A stretch of 64,000 bases of DNA from Candidatus Levyibacteriota bacterium (GTDB lineage: Bacteria; Patescibacteriota; Microgenomatia; Levybacterales; UBA12049): NCBI GenBank assembly GCA_016214555.1, contig JACROF010000002.1, positions 136,125 to 200,124 on the forward strand, read 5' to 3'. Shown here in pieces: positions 1,087-7,545 of this stretch. The position numbers and the translations under genes were made by a program. Below the pieces are notes generated by a model, which was not told the DNA's origin, did not search any database, and saw nothing but the letters and a program-made list of their open reading frames with translations. Each line of letters opens with the position of its first letter. The first letter of the stretch is position 1.

Positions 1087-2487
1087 ATGGATGAACAATC
1101 TCAGTTAAAAGATCACAAGCAAATTGGTCGCGAGCAAGAATTATTTTTTACCCACGACTATGCTCCAGGAGCGCCTTTTTGGCTTCCAAATGGCATGGTA
1201 ATTTTTAAGGAACTTGAAAAATATATCAGAGAGCTTACGCACGCTGCTGGATATCAAGAGACTTCCACTCCCATCATGGTAAAAAGCCAATTATTTAAAG
1301 AGTCAGGTCACTGGACAAAATTTGGAAAAGGTTTCGATGAGATGTATAACTTGTCTGTTTGGGAAGAAAGCGAAGCCGAGGCTGTTGGCAAAGCAATGGA
1401 AAAAGCAGAGACTCGCGATGCGATTGTAAAAGAAATTGGTAAAATAGAAAATAGACAACCTTTCCTTTATCCTTTAATTGTTGATGGACAAACTGCAGAT
1501 GTCTATGTTCTACCTACAAACACAGGTGATTCATTTAATTATGCTCTGCCAGTCAATTATTCACTCAAGCCTATGAACTGTCCTGAATCCACAATCCTTT
1601 ACAGATTTAAAACACGAAGCTATAAAGATCTACCTATCAGGCTATCAGAAATTGGAAGACTCCATCGCAGGGAAAAATCAGGTGAAGTCAATGGACTTTT
1701 GAGGGTACGACAACTGACAATGGACGATGCGCATATCTATGCGCGAGAAGATCAGATCTTTGATGAAGTCTCAAGCATCTTAGATATGATGACGAAATTT
1801 TATGAAAGTTTTGGTTTTTCGTATGAATTCAGATTTGCTACTCGCCCTGAGACAAGAGCAGGAACGGACGAGATGTGGGACAAGGCTGAAAAAGACCTCG
1901 AGGACGTTCTTAAGAAAAGAGGGATAAAAGCTGGGGACAAAAAGGGTGATGGGGCTTTTTACGGACCAAAAATTGACCTTCACATCAAAGACTCATTAGG
2001 TCGCGAATGGCAGCTTGCTACAGTACAACTAGATTTCCATCAGCCAGAAGCATTCAAGCTCGCCTACGTTGATGAAGAAGGAAAAGATGTAAGACCAGTC
2101 ATGATCCACCGTGCTATTTTTGGATCATTTGAGCGGTTTATTGGCATTTTGACAGAACATACCCAGGGAGCATTTCCTGTCTGGCTCTCTCCAGTCCAAG
2201 TAACAATACTTCCGATTGCAGACAGACACTACGATTATGCGCAAAAGGTAGCAGAACAGATACAAGAGGCAGGTATCAGAGTGGTGATTAATAACAAACA
2301 CGAGACCCTCCAGGCCAAAATCCGTGAGGCTACTTTACAAAAAGTACCATTTATGGGTATAATAGGGGACAAAGAGATAGCAGCTAATGCTATTTCTGTT
2401 CGTTTGCGAACTGGGGAAGATCAAGGTAGCCTTGAAATTTCCCACTTTTTGCAAATGGTAAGAGAAAACATTGATAAGAAGAAATAG
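1087..2487 (+). CDS. thrS: threonyl-tRNA synthetase, catalytic plus anticodon-binding domains only (no N-terminal editing domains)
   Basis: Class II aaRS motifs; HRAIFGSFERFIGILTEH matches ThrRS motif 3. Sits in the conserved thrS-infC-rpmI-rplT-pheST context. At 466 aa it is far shorter than the ~640 aa of canonical ThrRS. Confidence 0.9.
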   Translation: MDEQSQLKDHKQIGREQELFFTHDYAPGAPFWLPNGMVIFKELEKYIRELTHAAGYQETSTPIMVKSQLFKESGHWTKFGKGFDEMYNLSVWEESEAEAVGKAMEKAETRDAIVKEIGKIENRQPFLYPLIVDGQTADVYVLPTNTGDSFNYALPVNYSLKPMNCPESTILYRFKTRSYKDLPIRLSEIGRLHRREKSGEVNGLLRVRQLTMDDAHIYAREDQIFDEVSSILDMMTKFYESFGFSYEFRFATRPETRAGTDEMWDKAEKDLEDVLKKRGIKAGDKKGDGAFYGPKIDLHIKDSLGREWQLATVQLDFHQPEAFKLAYVDEEGKDVRPVMIHRAIFGSFERFIGILTEHTQGAFPVWLSPVQVTILPIADRHYDYAQKVAEQIQEAGIRVVINNKHETLQAKIREATLQKVPFMGIIGDKEIAANAISVRLRTGEDQGSLEISHFLQMVRENIDKKK

Positions 2488-3091
2488 ATTTCAACAAAAC
2501 CCAAGGTATCAATACCGAATCAACGAGCGTATTTCTGCTCCAACGCTTCGGGTTTTGGATCTTGAAGGAAAACAAATCGGCGTTCTTTCACGTCTTGAAG
2601 CATTACAGCTTGCAAGAGAAAGATCACTTGATTTGGTTGAGGTAGCAGCTCAAGCTAAGCCTCCGGTCGTAAAAGTAATCGATTTTAATAAGTTTCTCTA
2701 TCAACAAGCAAAGAAGAAACAGGAAGAAAAACGAAAGGCCAAGGTATCAGAGACCAAAGAAATTCGACTTGGACCATTTATGTCTAGTAATGACATACAA
2801 GTAATGGTCAGAAGAGGAAGAGAATTTCTTGAAGACGGAGACAAGATTAGACTCGTTCTCAAATTTAGAGGACGACAGATAATTCATCCTGAATTTGGTC
2901 ATGCTATAATAGCCAAAGTTATTTTAGCCCTTGAGGATATCTCAAAGGTTGAGAGAAGCGCACATATGGAAGGCAAGCAACTTGTTGCACTGCTTTCACC
3001 AGAAAGGAAAAAAACCTCTGATGCTAAAACCAAAGAGGACAAACAAAATGCCGAAGAAAAAGATAAAGGACTCAGTAGCAAAACGCTTTAA
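2471..3091 (+). CDS. infC: translation initiation factor IF-3
   Basis: RINERISAPTLRVLDLEGKQIGVLS...LDLVEV matches the IF3 N- and C-domains. The first codon at 2471 is TTG, followed by ATA; there is no AUG. It overlaps the thrS stop. Confidence 0.85.
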   Translation: MIRRNRFQQNPRYQYRINERISAPTLRVLDLEGKQIGVLSRLEALQLARERSLDLVEVAAQAKPPVVKVIDFNKFLYQQAKKKQEEKRKAKVSETKEIRLGPFMSSNDIQVMVRRGREFLEDGDKIRLVLKFRGRQIIHPEFGHAIIAKVILALEDISKVERSAHMEGKQLVALLSPERKKTSDAKTKEDKQNAEEKDKGLSSKTL

Positions 3092-3245
3092 AGTTACCAA
3101 GACGGGCAAAGTATTATTTGCTCATCAGTATGGTAGCCACAAAAAACTCCTTAAGTCAAAAAGAAGAATCCGAAGACAAAAAGAGACAGGTATTTTGACT
3201 GGGGAATTTGCTAAAAAGATCAAACAAATGTTAGGAGAAGCTTAA
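3048..3245 (+). CDS. rpmI: 50S ribosomal protein L35
   Basis: MPKKKIKDSVAKRFKVTKTGKVLF... is a typical L35. The internal ATG at 3048 is used; the N-extended ORF 2931..3245 is rejected. Confidence 0.85.
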   Translation: MPKKKIKDSVAKRFKVTKTGKVLFAHQYGSHKKLLKSKRRIRRQKETGILTGEFAKKIKQMLGEA

Positions 3246-3248
3246 TAT

Positions 3249-3599
3249 ATGGCTAGAATTAAAAGAGGTGTCGTATCACGACGAAGACATAATAAATTGC
3301 TCGGCCTTACAAAAGGATATCGAGGTACAAAATCACGACTTGTTAAGATGGCACATGAAGCGTCACTTCATGCTGGCGCATATGCATATCATGGTCGAAA
3401 ACTTCGAAAAAGAGACTTCAGAACACTTTGGATTACTCGTATTAGTGAGGCTGTCAAACAGCAAGATATGTCCTACAGTGTTTTCATGAATAAACTGAAA
3501 AAGGCACATGTTGAGCTTGATCGAAAAATCCTCAATGATATTTTGGTCAATGATCCTGCAACATTTACAAAACTGGTTGATAAAGTTAGAGGGCTCTAA
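3249..3599 (+). CDS. rplT: 50S ribosomal protein L20
   Basis: MARIKRGVVSRRRHNKLLGLTKGYRG... is the canonical L20 N-terminus. Confidence 0.92.
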   Translation: MARIKRGVVSRRRHNKLLGLTKGYRGTKSRLVKMAHEASLHAGAYAYHGRKLRKRDFRTLWITRISEAVKQQDMSYSVFMNKLKKAHVELDRKILNDILVNDPATFTKLVDKVRGL

Positions 3600-3631
3600 A
3601 AGTTCTCGTTGTAACACTTTGTCAACCACAT

Positions 3632-3651
3632 CCCCGCAAGGGGATTTTTTT
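3632..3651 (+). terminator. rho-independent terminator after rplT
   Basis: CCCCGCAAGGGG hairpin followed by ATTTTTTT. Confidence 0.6.
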
Positions 3652-3702
3652 ATGCCTGTCTCGCCGAAGTTTTAACGAAGGCGGAGAAGGGAGGTGAAAA
3701 AA

Positions 3703-3921
3703 ATGACAGAAATAGCAATACGATGCTGTGAGGGCAATGAAAGATACAAAGGAGAATGTCTCAAAGACAGGTGCCCAGTGTATTCTCAAGCAAGAAGAGA
3801 GGTTGATAGATCTTGGCCATATGTTGGTACAGGATTTGGAAACCTATACGGCAACCCAGAAGAGAGCACATACCTTGCTCAAACAAGAGGCTTGGTTGCA
3901 AGCAAAAAATCAGAACAGTAA
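3703..3921 (+). CDS. hypothetical 72-aa Cys-rich small ORF (module A of the tandem pair); coding status uncertain
   Basis: Strong SD GGGAGGTG lies 7 nt before ATGACAGAAAT. N-terminus has five Cys (RCCEG..GEC..RCP). DNA-level homology to module B at 4211..4429 is interrupted by frameshifts, which could mean a structured RNA rather than a protein. Confidence 0.3.
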   Translation: MTEIAIRCCEGNERYKGECLKDRCPVYSQARREVDRSWPYVGTGFGNLYGNPEESTYLAQTRGLVASKKSEQ

Positions 3922-3944
3922 AAAATTCTGACCTGTCGACTACT

Positions 3945-3965
3945 GGGTTAATTAATAGGCCACCC
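3945..3965. repeat. 21-nt motif GGGTTAATTAATAGGCCACCC, copy 1
   Basis: Identical to 4440..4460. Lies 24 nt after small ORF A. Confidence 0.8.
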
Positions 3966-4109
3966 GAAGTTGACAGATAAACATGCTATTGCTAGTATTA
4001 ATTACATATGACATTTTCTAAAAATTATTTTTGGTTTTACTTTACTCCCCCCGGGGGAGGTTCGTTAGTGGAGTAATCCGCTATTGAAAAGGTAAAACCT
4101 TTGAACCAA

Positions 4110-4132
4110 CCCCGATACGTCGGGGTTTTTTT
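4110..4132 (+). terminator. rho-independent terminator-like hairpin at the start of module B
   Basis: CCCCGA-TACG-TCGGGG followed by TTTTTTT. The 25 nt upstream resemble the sequence upstream of the 3632 terminator. Confidence 0.55.
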
Positions 4133-4210
4133 ATGGCAATAGTCGCTATTTGTGGAAATATGGAAGGGCTTGCCCTTCCGTAGCTTTAGCGAAAGAGGGA
4201 GGTGATACAT

Positions 4211-4429
4211 ATGACAGAAATGCAACCAGGAATAGAGCATACAATCAATATAGATACAAGAAGGGAAGTGGTACTTGCCAGCAATTCTTTAGTAACAGCT
4301 AAAGAAATTGAGATGAGAAACACTGCACTTGAACACATGCGATCAAGTGATGCTATGGAGAGACTGCTTCGGATTGGCCAGACAAGAGAGGGTCTTGCTG
4401 CCATTGTAGCAATGCATGGGCAAAAATAG
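4211..4429 (+). CDS. hypothetical 72-aa small ORF (module B of the tandem pair); coding status uncertain
   Basis: SD AGGGAGGTGA plus ATGACAGAAAT, same length as ORF A. The predicted protein is helical and unrelated to ORF A beyond the MTE start. Confidence 0.3.
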   Translation: MTEMQPGIEHTINIDTRREVVLASNSLVTAKEIEMRNTALEHMRSSDAMERLLRIGQTREGLAAIVAMHGQK

Positions 4430-4439
4430 ATTTATTGTG

Positions 4440-4460
4440 GGGTTAATTAATAGGCCACCC
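4440..4460. repeat. 21-nt motif GGGTTAATTAATAGGCCACCC, copy 2
   Basis: Identical to 3945..3965. Here it is embedded in a TGTGGGG...CCCCACA stem-loop. Confidence 0.8.
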
Positions 4461-4501
4461 CACAACTAGTCATTTTCTCCGAGGCTGAACTATGCTAAAG
4501 T

Positions 4502-5566
4502 ATGCTTATGGAACAAGAACTGATGACTATTAAAAACAACGCTGTTTCGCTGATCCTTGACGCAGGCTCTGAAAAAGAGCTTCAGGAGATAAAACTGCAA
4601 TTCTTAGGAAAAAGCGGAGCTCTTACTGTGGCTCTAAAGGAAATAACAAAACTTCCGCAAGAATCCCGTCCTGAAATTGGCAAACTCGCTAATGAGGTTA
4701 AAAAAATTATTGAAGAATCAATCGAAAATGCTACTCAGAATTTCAAATCCAAAAAAATTGAAAAGATTAAAAAGATTGATGTTACAGAACCAGGAATAAG
4801 ACCAGCACTTGGCCATCTCCATTTAGTAACTCAAGCGATAGAGGAAATAACAACTATTTTTGAAAAAATTGGTTTTACCAGAGTAAGTTATCCCGAAATT
4901 GAGTATGATTGGTATGCTTTTGAAGCTCTCAACTTCCCAGAAAACCATCCAGCAAGAGACGATTGGGAAACATTTTTTATTGACCAAACACCAGACCCAA
5001 AAAAAGGACCAATTCTTCTAACACCACACACCTCAAGTGGCCAGATACGAGAGATGGAAAAACAAGTTGCACTCCAAAAACAACACGGTAATGACATCTC
5101 TATTCGCATGCTCAACATAGCTAAAACATACAGGCGTCAATCTGATGCATCTCATGTACCAATGTTTCATCAATTTGAGACGCTTGTTGTTGGAAAAGAT
5201 ATCTCAATCACACATCTCAAAGGGGTTTTGGACTATTTTGTTAAATCATACTTTGGTGAAAGTAGAAAATCACGCATCAGACCATATCATTTTCAATTTA
5301 CCGAACCGTCATTTGAGACAGATGTTTCTTGTGGAGTCTGCAATGGCAAAGGTTGCAAGCTCTGCAAGGAAGGCTGGCTTGAACTAGGTGGGGCTGGTAT
5401 GGTTCATCCAAATGTTTTGCAAAACTGTGGTCTTGATCCCAAAAAATACAAAGGTTTTGCATCAGGTTGGGGAGTGGAAAGAGTACTGACGATGAAAGAA
5501 GGACTCAAGCTAGACGATATTCGCATGCTCTACTCAAATAATATCGAATTTCTCGAACAATTTTAA
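4502..5566 (+). CDS. pheS: phenylalanyl-tRNA synthetase alpha subunit
   Basis: C-terminal class II core FQFTEPSFETDV...GWGVERV. Conserved position before pheT. Confidence 0.9.
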   Translation: MLMEQELMTIKNNAVSLILDAGSEKELQEIKLQFLGKSGALTVALKEITKLPQESRPEIGKLANEVKKIIEESIENATQNFKSKKIEKIKKIDVTEPGIRPALGHLHLVTQAIEEITTIFEKIGFTRVSYPEIEYDWYAFEALNFPENHPARDDWETFFIDQTPDPKKGPILLTPHTSSGQIREMEKQVALQKQHGNDISIRMLNIAKTYRRQSDASHVPMFHQFETLVVGKDISITHLKGVLDYFVKSYFGESRKSRIRPYHFQFTEPSFETDVSCGVCNGKGCKLCKEGWLELGGAGMVHPNVLQNCGLDPKKYKGFASGWGVERVLTMKEGLKLDDIRMLYSNNIEFLEQF

Positions 5567-5592
5567 AAATAGGGGTGAAACCCCTAAAAACT

Positions 5593-7545
5593 ATGAATAT
5601 AAAAATACTTGATAGTTGGTTAAAAGAATATCTCAAGACAAAAGCGACTGCAAAAGATATCGCAAAATATATGTCTCTCTCAAGTGTCTCAATTGAAAGG
5701 ATTGAGCAACACAACGATGACCGCCTCTACGATATAGAAGTGACAACAAATCGCCCAGACCTCATGTCCGTTGTTGGTCTTGCTCGTGAAGCAGGTGCAG
5801 TTCTTCCCCAGTCTGGAATTGACGCAGCTTTTCTTCCTCCAACGATTGAAAAAAAACAGAAAACAAAAGAAGATTTGCCACTAAAAATTATCAATGACAA
5901 CTCACTTGTTTATCGGGTTTGCGCAGTAGTCATGGATGTCACAATCAAAAAATCTTCGCCTACAATAACTGAAAGACTTGAAGCATCAGACATCAGAAGT
6001 CTCAATAATGTAATTGATATTACCAATTATGTAATGAGAACTATTGGCCACCCAGCTCATGTTTTTGATTATGATCGAATTGCAGGGCACACTCTTAAGA
6101 TACGTGAATCAATTCGAGGTGAGATGATTACAACGCTTGATAATAAATCATATACTTTGCCAGGTGGAGACATCATTGCAGAAGATGGGGACGGGAATAT
6201 CGTAGATCTCTTAGGAATAATGGGGCTTGAGAATAGCGTAGTAACTGATGATACCAAAAGAATCATCTTTTTTATTAATAACAACAACCCTCACAAAATT
6301 CGTAAAACATCTATGGGACTTGGCATCAGGACTGAAGCTGCTCAAATGAATGAAAAAATGATTGATGCAGAACTTGCTATGGATGCTCTTCTTTTCGGCA
6401 TCGATTCCTATAAGGAACATGCTGATGCAAAAATTGTATCCGAAATTTTTGATATATATCCAAAACCGTATAAAACAAAAAGGGTGAGTGTTAAGCTCGC
6501 TCATATACAACAAGTAATTGGTATCCCACTACCCCTTAAAGAAGCGGAAAGCACTCTTAAAAAATTAGGCTTTGGAGTTGAGATCTCAGATGAAGTCATA
6601 ACCGCAAGCGTTCCGTCATTTCGAGCATCTGATATTGATATTCCCGAAGATCTTATTGAAGAAATTGCCAGAGTTTATGGATACCACAATCTTCCAAGCA
6701 TACTTCCTCCTGCCAACTTTATTGAACCAGTCAATTTTGGAGCCAACAAATTTTATTGGGAGCAACGCGTTAAAAACAGTATGAAATACTGGGGATTTGA
6801 CGAAGTCTACACCTACCCTATGGTCTCAGAGAGCATGTATGAAGCGCCAAGCAGTGAAGCAGTACGACTTGCTAATCCACTTGGGGAGGATTTTGTATAC
6901 ATGAGGACAACACTTGTCCCAAGTCTATTAAAAGTAATGCAGCAAAATACAAAAGCAAAGGAAATGCGAGTTTTTGAAATTGCGAATGTTTATTATAAAA
7001 GTGAGAACACATTACCCAATGAAAAAAAGGTTTTTGCAGGACTTATTAAAAAACCACATGTTTCATTTTTTGAGATTAAGGGACTTATTGAACAGGTGGC
7101 ACTAGATCTTGGTATCCCAAAGATTACTTGTTCGTCTCTTGATTCATCAGGGCTTGAAACCTCCATACTTCTTGACAAAAAATCTCTTGGGACAATAGAG
7201 ATACTTGATGAAGATCTTATCAATTTTGAGCTCAATTTTGAAACACTTGTCTCACACGCTACACTTCACAAAACCTACACACCTATTGCAAAACATCCAC
7301 CAATTGTTGAGGACATCTCGGTGATTATTGATGACTCAGTAACAAGTGAAACTATTATCAAAACAATTAAGGAGACAGACAGACTTGTTACATCAGTAAC
7401 ACTTCTTGATCGATATCAAGACACGAGGACATTTCATATTACCTATCAAGATCCAGAAAAAAATCTAACATCAAAAGATGTATCAGAAGTTAGAGCAGCA
7501 ATCATAGAGAGCCTTACTAAAAACTTTCAGGCAGTTATCAAATAG
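5593..7545 (+). CDS. pheT: phenylalanyl-tRNA synthetase beta subunit (short form)
   Basis: Begins MNIKILDSWLKEYL (B3/4 domain start). ATG at 5593 preferred over GTG at 5575. An AGGGG-TGAAA-CCCCT hairpin lies between pheS and pheT. Confidence 0.85.
   Translation: MNIKILDSWLKEYLKTKATAKDIAKYMSLSSVSIERIEQHNDDRLYDIEVTTNRPDLMSVVGLAREAGAVLPQSGIDAAFLPPTIEKKQKTKEDLPLKIINDNSLVYRVCAVVMDVTIKKSSPTITERLEASDIRSLNNVIDITNYVMRTIGHPAHVFDYDRIAGHTLKIRESIRGEMITTLDNKSYTLPGGDIIAEDGDGNIVDLLGIMGLENSVVTDDTKRIIFFINNNNPHKIRKTSMGLGIRTEAAQMNEKMIDAELAMDALLFGIDSYKEHADAKIVSEIFDIYPKPYKTKRVSVKLAHIQQVIGIPLPLKEAESTLKKLGFGVEISDEVITASVPSFRASDIDIPEDLIEEIARVYGYHNLPSILPPANFIEPVNFGANKFYWEQRVKNSMKYWGFDEVYTYPMVSESMYEAPSSEAVRLANPLGEDFVYMRTTLVPSLLKVMQQNTKAKEMRVFEIANVYYKSENTLPNEKKVFAGLIKKPHVSFFEIKGLIEQVALDLGIPKITCSSLDSSGLETSILLDKKSLGTIEILDEDLINFELNFETLVSHATLHKTYTPIAKHPPIVEDISVIIDDSVTSETIIKTIKETDRLVTSVTLLDRYQDTRTFHITYQDPEKNLTSKDVSEVRAAIIESLTKNFQAVIK

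Follow-up and report, generated by a model that had tools for sequence, protein, structure and literature searches.

A predicted phenylalanine leader-peptide attenuator accompanied by two unrelated small protein genes between rplT and pheS of a Candidatus Levybacteria genome

Classical transcription attenuation upstream of aminoacyl-tRNA synthetase genes has been described for pheST in gamma-proteobacteria and for leuS and trpS in Streptomyces (PMC1262725). In Escherichia coli K-12 the order of genes is thrS-infC-rpmI-rplT-pheM-pheS-pheT, and the pheM leader is represented in Rfam by RF01859 (Phe_leader), which scores 75 bits there against a gathering score of 55. In Firmicutes the usual control of pheS is by T-box leaders. 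To our knowledge, next to nothing is known of how genes are regulated in the Candidate Phyla Radiation (CPR), a group of uncultivated, largely auxotrophic bacteria with reduced genomes. Here we describe the rplT-pheS region in a stretch of 64 kb (the window) from a metagenome-assembled genome of Candidatus Levybacteria (CPR, Microgenomates). All features discussed lie on the forward strand, in the order thrS (1087-2487), infC (2471-3091), rpmI, rplT (3249-3599), a region of small open reading frames (ORFs), pheS (4508-5566) and pheT (5575-7545). The original prediction for this region was a tandemly duplicated module of 0.4-0.5 kb. We consider it likely that the region is a composite expression locus, made up of a phenylalanine (Phe) attenuator, two unrelated small protein genes (ORF1 and ORF2), shared flanks, an inserted ORF1 segment and a 21-mer stem-loop.

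The resemblance to E. coli pheM is close: the window leader takes the same position in the same gene order and is a short ORF rich in Phe codons as well (here ..YFWFYFT.., in relatives ..FGFYFTS..). Likewise, an intrinsic terminator comes 20-33 nt past the leader stop, and an upstream pairing competes with it. Judged by its sequence, the element at 3970-4134 would be a classical ribosome-mediated Phe transcription attenuator, present once and situated between the two units of the apparent repeat (unit 1 being the ORF1 side, unit 2 the ORF2 side). It opens with a sigma70-like promoter at 3970-3998 (TTGACA-17-TAGTAT with TG, 10/12 matches), which is the top promoter-like site within the 3.2 kb scanned (2400-5600) and is 81% conserved in L002 (L-numbers denote loci or contigs of relatives, P-numbers homologous proteins). 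As 9 nt lie between the end of the -10 box and the leader ATG, the leader transcript would be nearly leaderless. The leader ORF (MTFSKNYFWFYFTPPGGGSLVE*, 4008-4076) counts 22 codons, of which 4 encode Phe, 2 Tyr and 1 Trp, with YFWFYF as its core, and is conserved in L002, L004, L105, L113 and L114. Its nucleotide identity to L002 is 88%, and non-coding segments reach 81-94%, against 34-38% at the 4-fold sites of pheS and pheT. A scan of the whole window for leader-peptide attenuators yielded only 4008-4076 as a convincing candidate.

Folding and comparison place the attenuator RNA at 4033-4132. For the RNA 4005-4136 the minimum free energy is -46.6 kcal/mol (z -4.5), and four elements are predicted: a long stem, a C-run/G-run hairpin, a small middle hairpin and a terminator. 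The long stem (11 bp, 4033-4043:4089-4099) joins the WFYF codons to a downstream segment, while in hairpin 1:2 the C-run 4047-4052 pairs with the G-run 4053-4057. Terminator 2 (AACCCCGATACGTCGGGGTT + T7, 4108-4132; hairpin 4108-4127, T-run 4126-4132) follows 31 nt past the leader stop. The antiterminator consists of 4053-4063 paired with 4103-4113: once the C-run is masked, and as long as the terminator lacks its 3' arm, GAACC..CCCC of its 5' arm is bound by the G-run and GGUUC, at -28.6 to -30.8 kcal/mol. The folding and covariation analysis proposed with the original prediction is in line with this structure: when the window, L002, L004 and L105 are aligned, 93.6% of the cells of the terminated structure are paired and 5 pairs have changed on both sides. 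The same leader (..YFWFYFT..GGSLV.) and hairpins, compensatory changes included, recur in L002, L004, L105, L113 and L114. The antiterminator is kept as aligned in 3/4 of the loci compared (window, L002, L004, L105); in L105 it takes another register, and the terminator arm is still sequestered when this sequence is folded alone.

These elements suggest the following course of events. With Phe-tRNA plentiful, the ribosome would reach the leader stop and cover the G-run (4053-4063), and the terminator at 4108-4132 would form. A ribosome stalled on the YFWFYF codons would cover the C-run (4047-4052); the freed G-run and GGUUC could then pair with the terminator 5' arm (4103-4113), by which the terminator would be prevented and transcription would run into ORF2 and, probably, pheST.

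RF01859 is the best Rfam match on the window, though below threshold (4012-4134, 25.3 bits, E 0.21), and it is also the best, again sub-threshold, on four relatives (L016 44.1, L070 35.4, L018 31.4 and L024 31.0 bits). Since the scores of the CPR leaders stay under 55, they are pheM-like in working and place, yet no members of RF01859 by the Rfam criterion. The features by which a pheM-type attenuator can be recognized are nonetheless found: a Phe-codon-rich ORF, a nearby terminator, an exclusive antiterminator (in silico only) and cognate genes downstream (pheST, and Phe biosynthesis in relatives). A T-box (RF00230) is absent from 3000-5000 at E <= 10 and from the window at the gathering score; the E-value scan of the region and the gathering-score scan of the window gave no family above threshold and no L20 leader. 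Of the Rfam comparison suggested earlier (T-box and pheM-like leader), it is thus only the pheM side that returned a match, a sub-threshold one. Similarly, the idea of a duplicated pheST leader or attenuator holds in that an attenuator is present and the terminator of unit 2 belongs to it; it is single, however, located at 3970-4134 and built on a 22-codon leader ORF that had gone unnoticed.

Comparable Phe-rich leaders with a terminator are found in about 30 related Microgenomates genomes. We collected 80 PheS-anchored loci from species-representative genomes (Levybacteria, other Microgenomates and some Parcubacteria), and scored as leader any short ATG-ORF with at least 3 Phe in 7 residues that is followed by a hairpin and T-run. 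The coding strand of the rplT-to-pheS spacer (73 kb) contains 30 such Phe-rich mini-ORFs with terminator, against 3 on the opposite strand of the spacers and 2 and 9 in 390 kb of flanks, an enrichment of 10-80 fold. Phe is also the commonest enriched amino acid in the spacer mini-ORFs (30, followed by Leu with 8). Examples from relatives are MHKTAQSFFFFAFA, MKSTNKKSFGFFFYFTP, MIKHKNFGFYFTSPTGR, MNTNVNSYFAFFTS and MVKNVFFGFTFTTS. The distance from leader stop to terminator is 20-33 nt in most leaders scored (44 nt in L015). In support of a switch between exclusive folds, a ribosome put in silico on the Phe codons leaves the terminator 5' arm at least 60% paired upstream in 28/30 leaders, and one put on the stop codon leaves this arm largely free in 26/29, both counts being without shuffle control. 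In several genomes the leader is located 0.3-3.5 kb 5' of pheS with other genes (cargo) between: 3-deoxy-D-arabino-heptulosonate 7-phosphate (DAHP) synthase in L012 (2983-3807), chorismate mutase together with a prephenate dehydrogenase/dehydratase fusion in L015 (2379-3982) and prephenate dehydratase-ACT in L027 (1951-3156), each between the Phe leader/terminator and pheS. Further cargo includes NUDIX, GNAT or unknown small proteins. The presence of Phe-pathway genes behind the leaders provides independent support for phenylalanine as the signal sensed, and is noteworthy because the lineage of these Levybacteria is generally regarded as auxotrophic.

In many other Microgenomates we observed a different small ORF of 60-100 aa in the space between attenuator and pheS (L028 3692-3958, L031 3803-3985, L040, L041, L051 3707-3934 and L054 2333-2602). 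Some of these are distant relatives of ORF2 (P0010, P0011), others are Cys-rich; the Cys-rich cargo of L051 was tried as a relative of ORF1 and rejected, as it gives no significant match to the ORF1 profile.

The two small ORFs of the window (ORF1 at 3703-3921 and ORF2 at 4211-4429; NCBI locus names HZC02_00905 and HZC02_00910) were described in the original prediction as 72-codon ORFs with a common start ATGACAGAAAT, and indeed both have this length and start, the first 11 nt being identical. ORF1 (72 aa) belongs to an uncharacterised family (CC-x9-C-x4-C ... WPYxxTGFGNLYGxP). Its homologues show 53-58% identity, and a profile search in 1.84e9 proteins retrieved 45 cluster representatives with invariant Cys residues and the WPY..TGFGNLYG.P motif. 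Between the window and relatives the ratio of nonsynonymous to synonymous differences (pN/pS) is 0.33-0.39 for ORF1. No match was obtained in Pfam, NCBIfam or PDB; the AlphaFold (AF2) model has a predicted local distance difference test score (pLDDT) of 87 and no meaningful structural neighbour. ORF2 (72 aa) represents a small family restricted to Levybacteria, with 70% identity (68 aa) in L002-L004 plus more distant homologues (11 proteins in total), and again without sequence match in Pfam, NCBIfam or PDB. For L002 against L004 the ORF2 frame has pN 0.089 and pS 0.423, whereas the other two frames are reversed (0.18 and 0.09 out of frame); over both ORFs, the pN/pS of the window against relatives is 0.20-0.39. 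These patterns argue for two real small proteins under purifying selection, from two unrelated and uncharacterised families. The earlier caveat that strong Shine-Dalgarno (SD) sequences might mean real small proteins therefore appears to be the correct reading, by conservation and by pN/pS. A 64-aa ORF at 3737-3931 (+), which overlaps ORF1 in another frame and was called instead of it by the gene caller of the Logan record, was rejected because homologues support the frame starting at 3703.

ORF2 is always situated between the Phe attenuator and pheS, and would be the normal occupant of this slot in the closest relatives. By eye, and composition expectation aside, ORF2 and most of its close homologues (P0002, P0003, P0012, P0013) contain zero Phe, Tyr and Trp; a protein free of these residues would suit production during aromatic amino-acid limitation. 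The ORF1 family appears to be wider in CPR and usually directly behind a Phe leader and terminator: a Phe-rich leader with terminator precedes the homologue in 4/7 contexts, and a terminator lies at most ~60 nt upstream in 6/7. In L005 the order is rplT, leader MNICIKFFSFSLT, terminator, ORF1 homologue and pheS. In L006 (50-190), L007 (133-261) and L119 (2358-2471) the leaders ..RYFFFSLY.., ..TFFFSFYY.. and ..NFFFTSFW.. with terminator stand before an ORF1 homologue at loci unrelated to pheS. In L118 (381-470) an attenuator-like terminator/antiterminator, with a leader that has a single Phe, is found directly after the 5S rRNA and before the ORF1 homologue. The homologue in L008 is preceded by a promoter only, and ORF1 of the window by the rplT terminator only. 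As the family is repeatedly located behind Phe leaders, it appears to be responsive to Phe limitation. With respect to the remaining surroundings, one homologue away from pheS follows a UvrD/PD-(D/E)XK helicase-nuclease gene and another precedes His_Phos_1 and phosphoenolpyruvate (PEP)-utilizer genes.

What is repeated between the two units was evaluated by local alignment scores against dinucleotide shuffles. The two hairpin plus T-run terminators with related upstream sequences of ~25 nt, at 3630-3651 and 4108-4132, bear out the original prediction (z 5.0, 0/300 shuffles as good). The same is true for the alignable leader block: together with the first 11 nt of each ORF, the 5' untranslated region (5'UTR) and SD form a stretch of 33 nt with 82% identity (z 11.8). 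The bodies of the ORFs behave differently. A patchy DNA similarity had been reported for them, but the observed score of 10.0 falls below the mean of the shuffles, 11.0 (z -0.6), and is not beyond chance. A tblastn search of ORF2 against all frames of unit 1 gave nothing significant. That the two predicted proteins are unrelated had been correctly noted: BLASTP returned no alignment, and hhalign of the family profiles a probability of 0.06%. The homology along the full length of both units that a whole-module tandem duplication requires is absent, and divergence of the copies by indels does not account for ORF bodies that share no homology. Given dissimilar ORF bodies and proteins next to significant flanks (terminator, 5'UTR and 21-mer), the repeat is a set of flanks and not a module of 0.4-0.5 kb. 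The apparent tandem repeat is made up of two unrelated small protein genes with look-alike flanks around one Phe attenuator, and illustrates for annotation that such flanks around small ORFs can pass for a duplicated RNA element.

The individual flanks can be traced in relatives. Terminator 1 (ATCCCCGCAAGGGGAT + T7, 3630-3651, from the terminator scan) would be the ordinary intrinsic terminator of the rplT operon, because relatives without unit 1 have it too (94% identical in L002, with no ORF1 behind it). The 5'UTR of ORF1 with SD GGAGGTGA (3652-3702) contains the 33 nt shared with unit 2. Its identity to the L002 stretch from terminator 2 to the ORF2 ATG is 76%, and its homologue in relatives is thus most likely the 5'UTR that leads from the attenuator to ORF2. 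In the window itself the latter extends from 4134 to 4210 and comprises a hairpin (4159-4182) and SD GGGAGGTGA, as seen from similarity and comparison with L002.

The 21-mer GGGTTAATTAATAGGCCACCC is present in exactly two copies in the window (3945-3965 and 4440-4460; 0 expected), and no further copy occurs in the 64 kb even at 3 mismatches. Copy 2 is located within a TGTGGGG/CCCCACA stem-loop, as originally stated and as our fold agrees; this stem-loop (4435-4465) has a stem of 7-9 bp and a loop of 13-15 nt (UUAAUUAAUAGGCCA), and scores 58.1 bits with the covariance model (CM). Copy 1 keeps the 21 bases exactly and has the same loop, with most of the stem gone (only GGG/CCC and one G-U pair; CM R1 43.7 bits); the identity ends sharply on both sides, and 4 nt separate copy 1 from the -35 box of the leader promoter. 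The 21-mer was also searched for elsewhere, as suggested earlier. The same loop is found in L002, L004 and L113, and a variant loop (..AGCGCT) in L012 and L105; a CM search over 546 kb of related loci revealed no further copies of the hairpin. Stem variants compensate each other (TGTGGGG/CCCCACA, GCTGGGG/CCCCAGC, TCTGGGG/CCCCAGA, TTTGGGG/CCCCAAA), with G-C / C-G / U-A at one position and U-A / G-C at another across 7 copies. Stem cells are paired in 84-87% against ~50% with a slid partner, and the covariation score is above all or nearly all shuffles. The spacer between ORF2 and pheS that contains the hairpin is 87% identical between window and L002, on par with the attenuator and well above the 34-38% at 4-fold sites of pheS and pheT. 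Taken together, the 21-mer is predicted to be a selected, covarying stem-loop. It is confined to this locus and the nearest subclade, where it follows ORF2, ORF1 or DAHP synthase (L012). Without a U-tract it does not qualify as an intrinsic terminator, and an antisense partner for its loop was not found in the window. Our best guess, favoured because the stem covaries, is an RNA hairpin that protects the 3' end, serves processing or is bound by a protein, and that separates the attenuator-controlled transcript from the next promoter. A metagenome pattern for the 21-mer (GGGTTAATTAATAGNNNNCCC) was discarded: 23 of its 24 matches correspond to chance, and only L105 is relevant. Another subclade of Levybacteria, which does not have the 21-mer hairpin (L017, L018, L023-L025, L032, L033, L040), carries a conserved motif GCATTTTGCCTCAAAATTYGATATACTT ~15-45 nt 5' of pheS that contains an inverted repeat ATTTTG/CAAAAT.

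The closest relatives (L002/L003/L009 and L004) have a PheS that is 89-91% identical to that of the window, and the order rplT, terminator 1, promoter, short ORF MTFVKNYFWFYFTSPGEGSLVA, terminator 2, SD, ORF2, 21-mer hairpin, pheS, without ORF1. Where they have ~17 nt between terminator 1 and the leader promoter, the window has ~310 extra bases (roughly 3660-3968), consisting of a 5'UTR, ORF1 and the second copy of the 21-mer. The [5'UTR-ORF1-21-mer] segment thus appears to have been added after the rplT terminator in the lineage of the window, and the repeated flanks (terminator, 5'UTR/SD, first codons and 21-mer stem-loop) are the common frame of the slot.

With regard to the genes controlled, pheS seems to have an expression signal of its own. 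An extended -10-like box (TGcTAAAGT, 4493-4501) ends 6 nt before the pheS ATG (4508), and there is no SD. In 34/63 CPR loci a TANNNT starts 12-13 nt before the pheS start codon (background 1-2 per position), often with TGn in front and likewise without SD, which suggests that pheS has its own promoter and a leaderless mRNA. With this signature, ORF2 is the only certain target of the attenuator here; since no terminator separates ORF2 from pheS, read-through might plausibly control pheST as well. The start of pheS is overlapped out of frame by a 13-codon ORF (MLKYAYGTRTDDY, 4492-4533) with GAGG 7 nt upstream, which is probably incidental.

Several observations weigh against the interpretation of the region as an attenuator-controlled composite locus. 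We infer every step of the attenuation mechanism from sequence and folding, and in the window the antiterminator is no more stable than the terminated fold (-28.6 to -30.8 against -30.6 kcal/mol); as the two folds are nearly isoenergetic, the antiterminator must win kinetically. Furthermore, pheS may be transcribed largely on its own. ORF1 of the window has no leader, and the promoter scan detected no promoter for it, so it would be expressed only if transcription reads through terminator 1. L114 has ORF2 but no hairpin; the hairpin is therefore not essential to the slot. Finally, two routes fit the insertion and neither is preferred: the slot [promoter-leader-terminator 2-5'UTR-ORF-hairpin] could have been duplicated in tandem, after which the similar terminators would have recombined, with loss of the first promoter-leader copy, and one of the cargo genes would have been replaced, or strains with different cargo could have recombined.

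Other explanations for parts or the whole of the region have to be weighed against the composite locus. One of them is that the 21-mer acts at the level of DNA, as promoter-upstream element or as operator of a dimeric regulator, and not as RNA hairpin. Both copies in the window lie directly 5' of promoter-like sites (copy 1 at 4 nt before TTGACA, copy 2 ~35 nt ahead of the -10 box of pheS), TTAATTAA at the core is perfectly palindromic, the sequence of copy 1 remained exact although most of its stem was lost, and the absence of a U-tract excludes an intrinsic terminator. The covariation of the stem (84-87% paired against ~50% when slid) is nevertheless what base pairing would leave behind and not a contacted operator, and the distance to the two promoters differs by ~8 nt; on balance we regard a DNA-level role as possible but rather unlikely. 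It might also be argued that both terminators are regulated, with translation of the rplT 3' end controlling read-through into ORF1. Here the hairpin across the rplT stop codon (3574-3628) is of importance. Its arms, 3574-3586 and 3616-3628 (13 nt, 92% complementary), let the last rplT codons pair with the segment directly before the rplT terminator, an arrangement kept in L002 and L004; the 3' arm is what had been described as the related 25-nt sequence of unit 1. This 13-bp pairing formally parallels the stem between Phe codons and 4089-4099, the pre-terminator sequences of both units are alike (z 5.0) and ORF1 has no promoter of its own. Still, there is no regulatory codon run, no part of the terminator is an evident partner for the 3' arm once it is freed (and hence no antiterminator is formed), and the same hairpin and terminator are seen in L002 and L004 where a promoter follows and not ORF1. 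We therefore think regulation of terminator 1 quite improbable.

The remaining two alternatives concern the repeat itself, and we attach hardly any likelihood to either. According to the original prediction a structured RNA would fit better than protein genes, such that the units are copies of a pheST leader or small RNA family diverged by indels, with incidental ORFs. Similar flanks, the equal length of the ORFs and their identical first 11 nt are in agreement with this, but the ORF bodies have no DNA similarity (z -0.6), each ORF has homologues with conserved motifs at a pN/pS of 0.2-0.4 (alternative frames being reversed), relatives carry only one of the two units and no Rfam family covers the ORFs. 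Conservation of both ORFs as proteins under purifying selection had been named in advance as the outcome that would speak against an RNA element; this is the outcome observed, and on that basis the duplicated-RNA reading fails. Alternatively, the duplication could be an assembly artefact, in which two strains with different cargo were joined at the shared flanks. The window does originate from a metagenome-assembled genome, and relatives carry ORF1 or ORF2 at the locus. However, an independently assembled Logan contig (L001, 19,954 bp) is identical to the window across all 8,090 bases compared, both units included, exact shared repeats do not exceed 21 nt (too short to mislead an assembler) and the sequence at both junctions (terminator 1/5'UTR and 21-mer/TTGACA) is unique. 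The same contig confirms rplT (ribosomal protein L20, 3249-3599, from the ORF list) by a match to Pfam Ribosomal_L20, as last gene of the thrS-infC-rpmI-rplT cluster; pheS and pheT follow at 4508-7545.

Summarizing, the composite locus with a single Phe attenuator accounts best for these data, and it may have a wider meaning. A pheM-type attenuator across Microgenomates would imply that charging of tRNA-Phe is monitored via coupled transcription and translation in these bacteria, and that the thrS-infC-rpmI-rplT-leader-pheST arrangement of E. coli extends over a very deep phylogenetic distance. In addition, the attenuator offers a functional handle ('induced by Phe limitation') on otherwise unannotated proteins, i.e. 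the ORF1 family, ORF2 and other small cargo. A more speculative extension, for which we would give a low probability, is that Levybacteria and other Microgenomates use the space between attenuator and pheS as a slot for gene exchange. Unrelated genes would come and go within a frame of common 5'UTR/SD (in one subclade with the 21-mer stem-loop as boundary for recombination or processing), and ORF1 (4-Cys WPYxGTGFGNLYGxP family) and ORF2 would be previously unknown effectors in the response to Phe starvation. If so, ORF1 and ORF2 could modulate PheRS, translation or the acquisition of Phe from a host, in organisms that are mostly unable to make it.

Compared to known systems, part of the locus recalls mobile or dispersed hairpins. 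As in integron cassettes (ORF plus attC hairpin) and REP-type (repetitive extragenic palindromic) hairpins, behind each small promoterless ORF stands an imperfect hairpin whose core is conserved, and the ORFs in equivalent slots are unrelated. On the other side, no integrase or recombinase is present among the neighbours (thrS, infC, rpmI, rplT, pheST, a penicillin-binding protein (PBP) and tyrS); the hairpin, of 29-31 nt, is much shorter than attC and is found at this locus only and not dispersed. T-box leaders also sense the charging of tRNA-Phe by a terminator/antiterminator switch 5' of pheS, whereas sensing here would proceed via translation of a leader peptide and not by tRNA binding. 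The logic is that of trpL, hisL and pheL in Proteobacteria and of leuS/trpS in Streptomyces, where stalling at cognate codons selects the antiterminator over the terminator; the difference from the classical amino-acid operon attenuators is the phylum, here the CPR/Microgenomates, and in the literature searched we found no paper that connects CPR/Patescibacteria with attenuation. Against E. coli pheM the window leader is longer (22 codons, the 3' half of which encodes hairpin 1:2), has an extra long stem over the Phe codons and is read from a nearly leaderless mRNA. Cargo is placed between terminator and pheS (ORF2 here; Phe-biosynthesis genes or unknown small proteins elsewhere), and pheS appears to own a promoter. 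What seems to be new in this locus, as far as can be read from its sequence, is the occurrence in CPR bacteria of a Phe attenuator of the pheM type, together with a conserved stem-loop and with two small uncharacterised proteins that it would control or that lie beside it.

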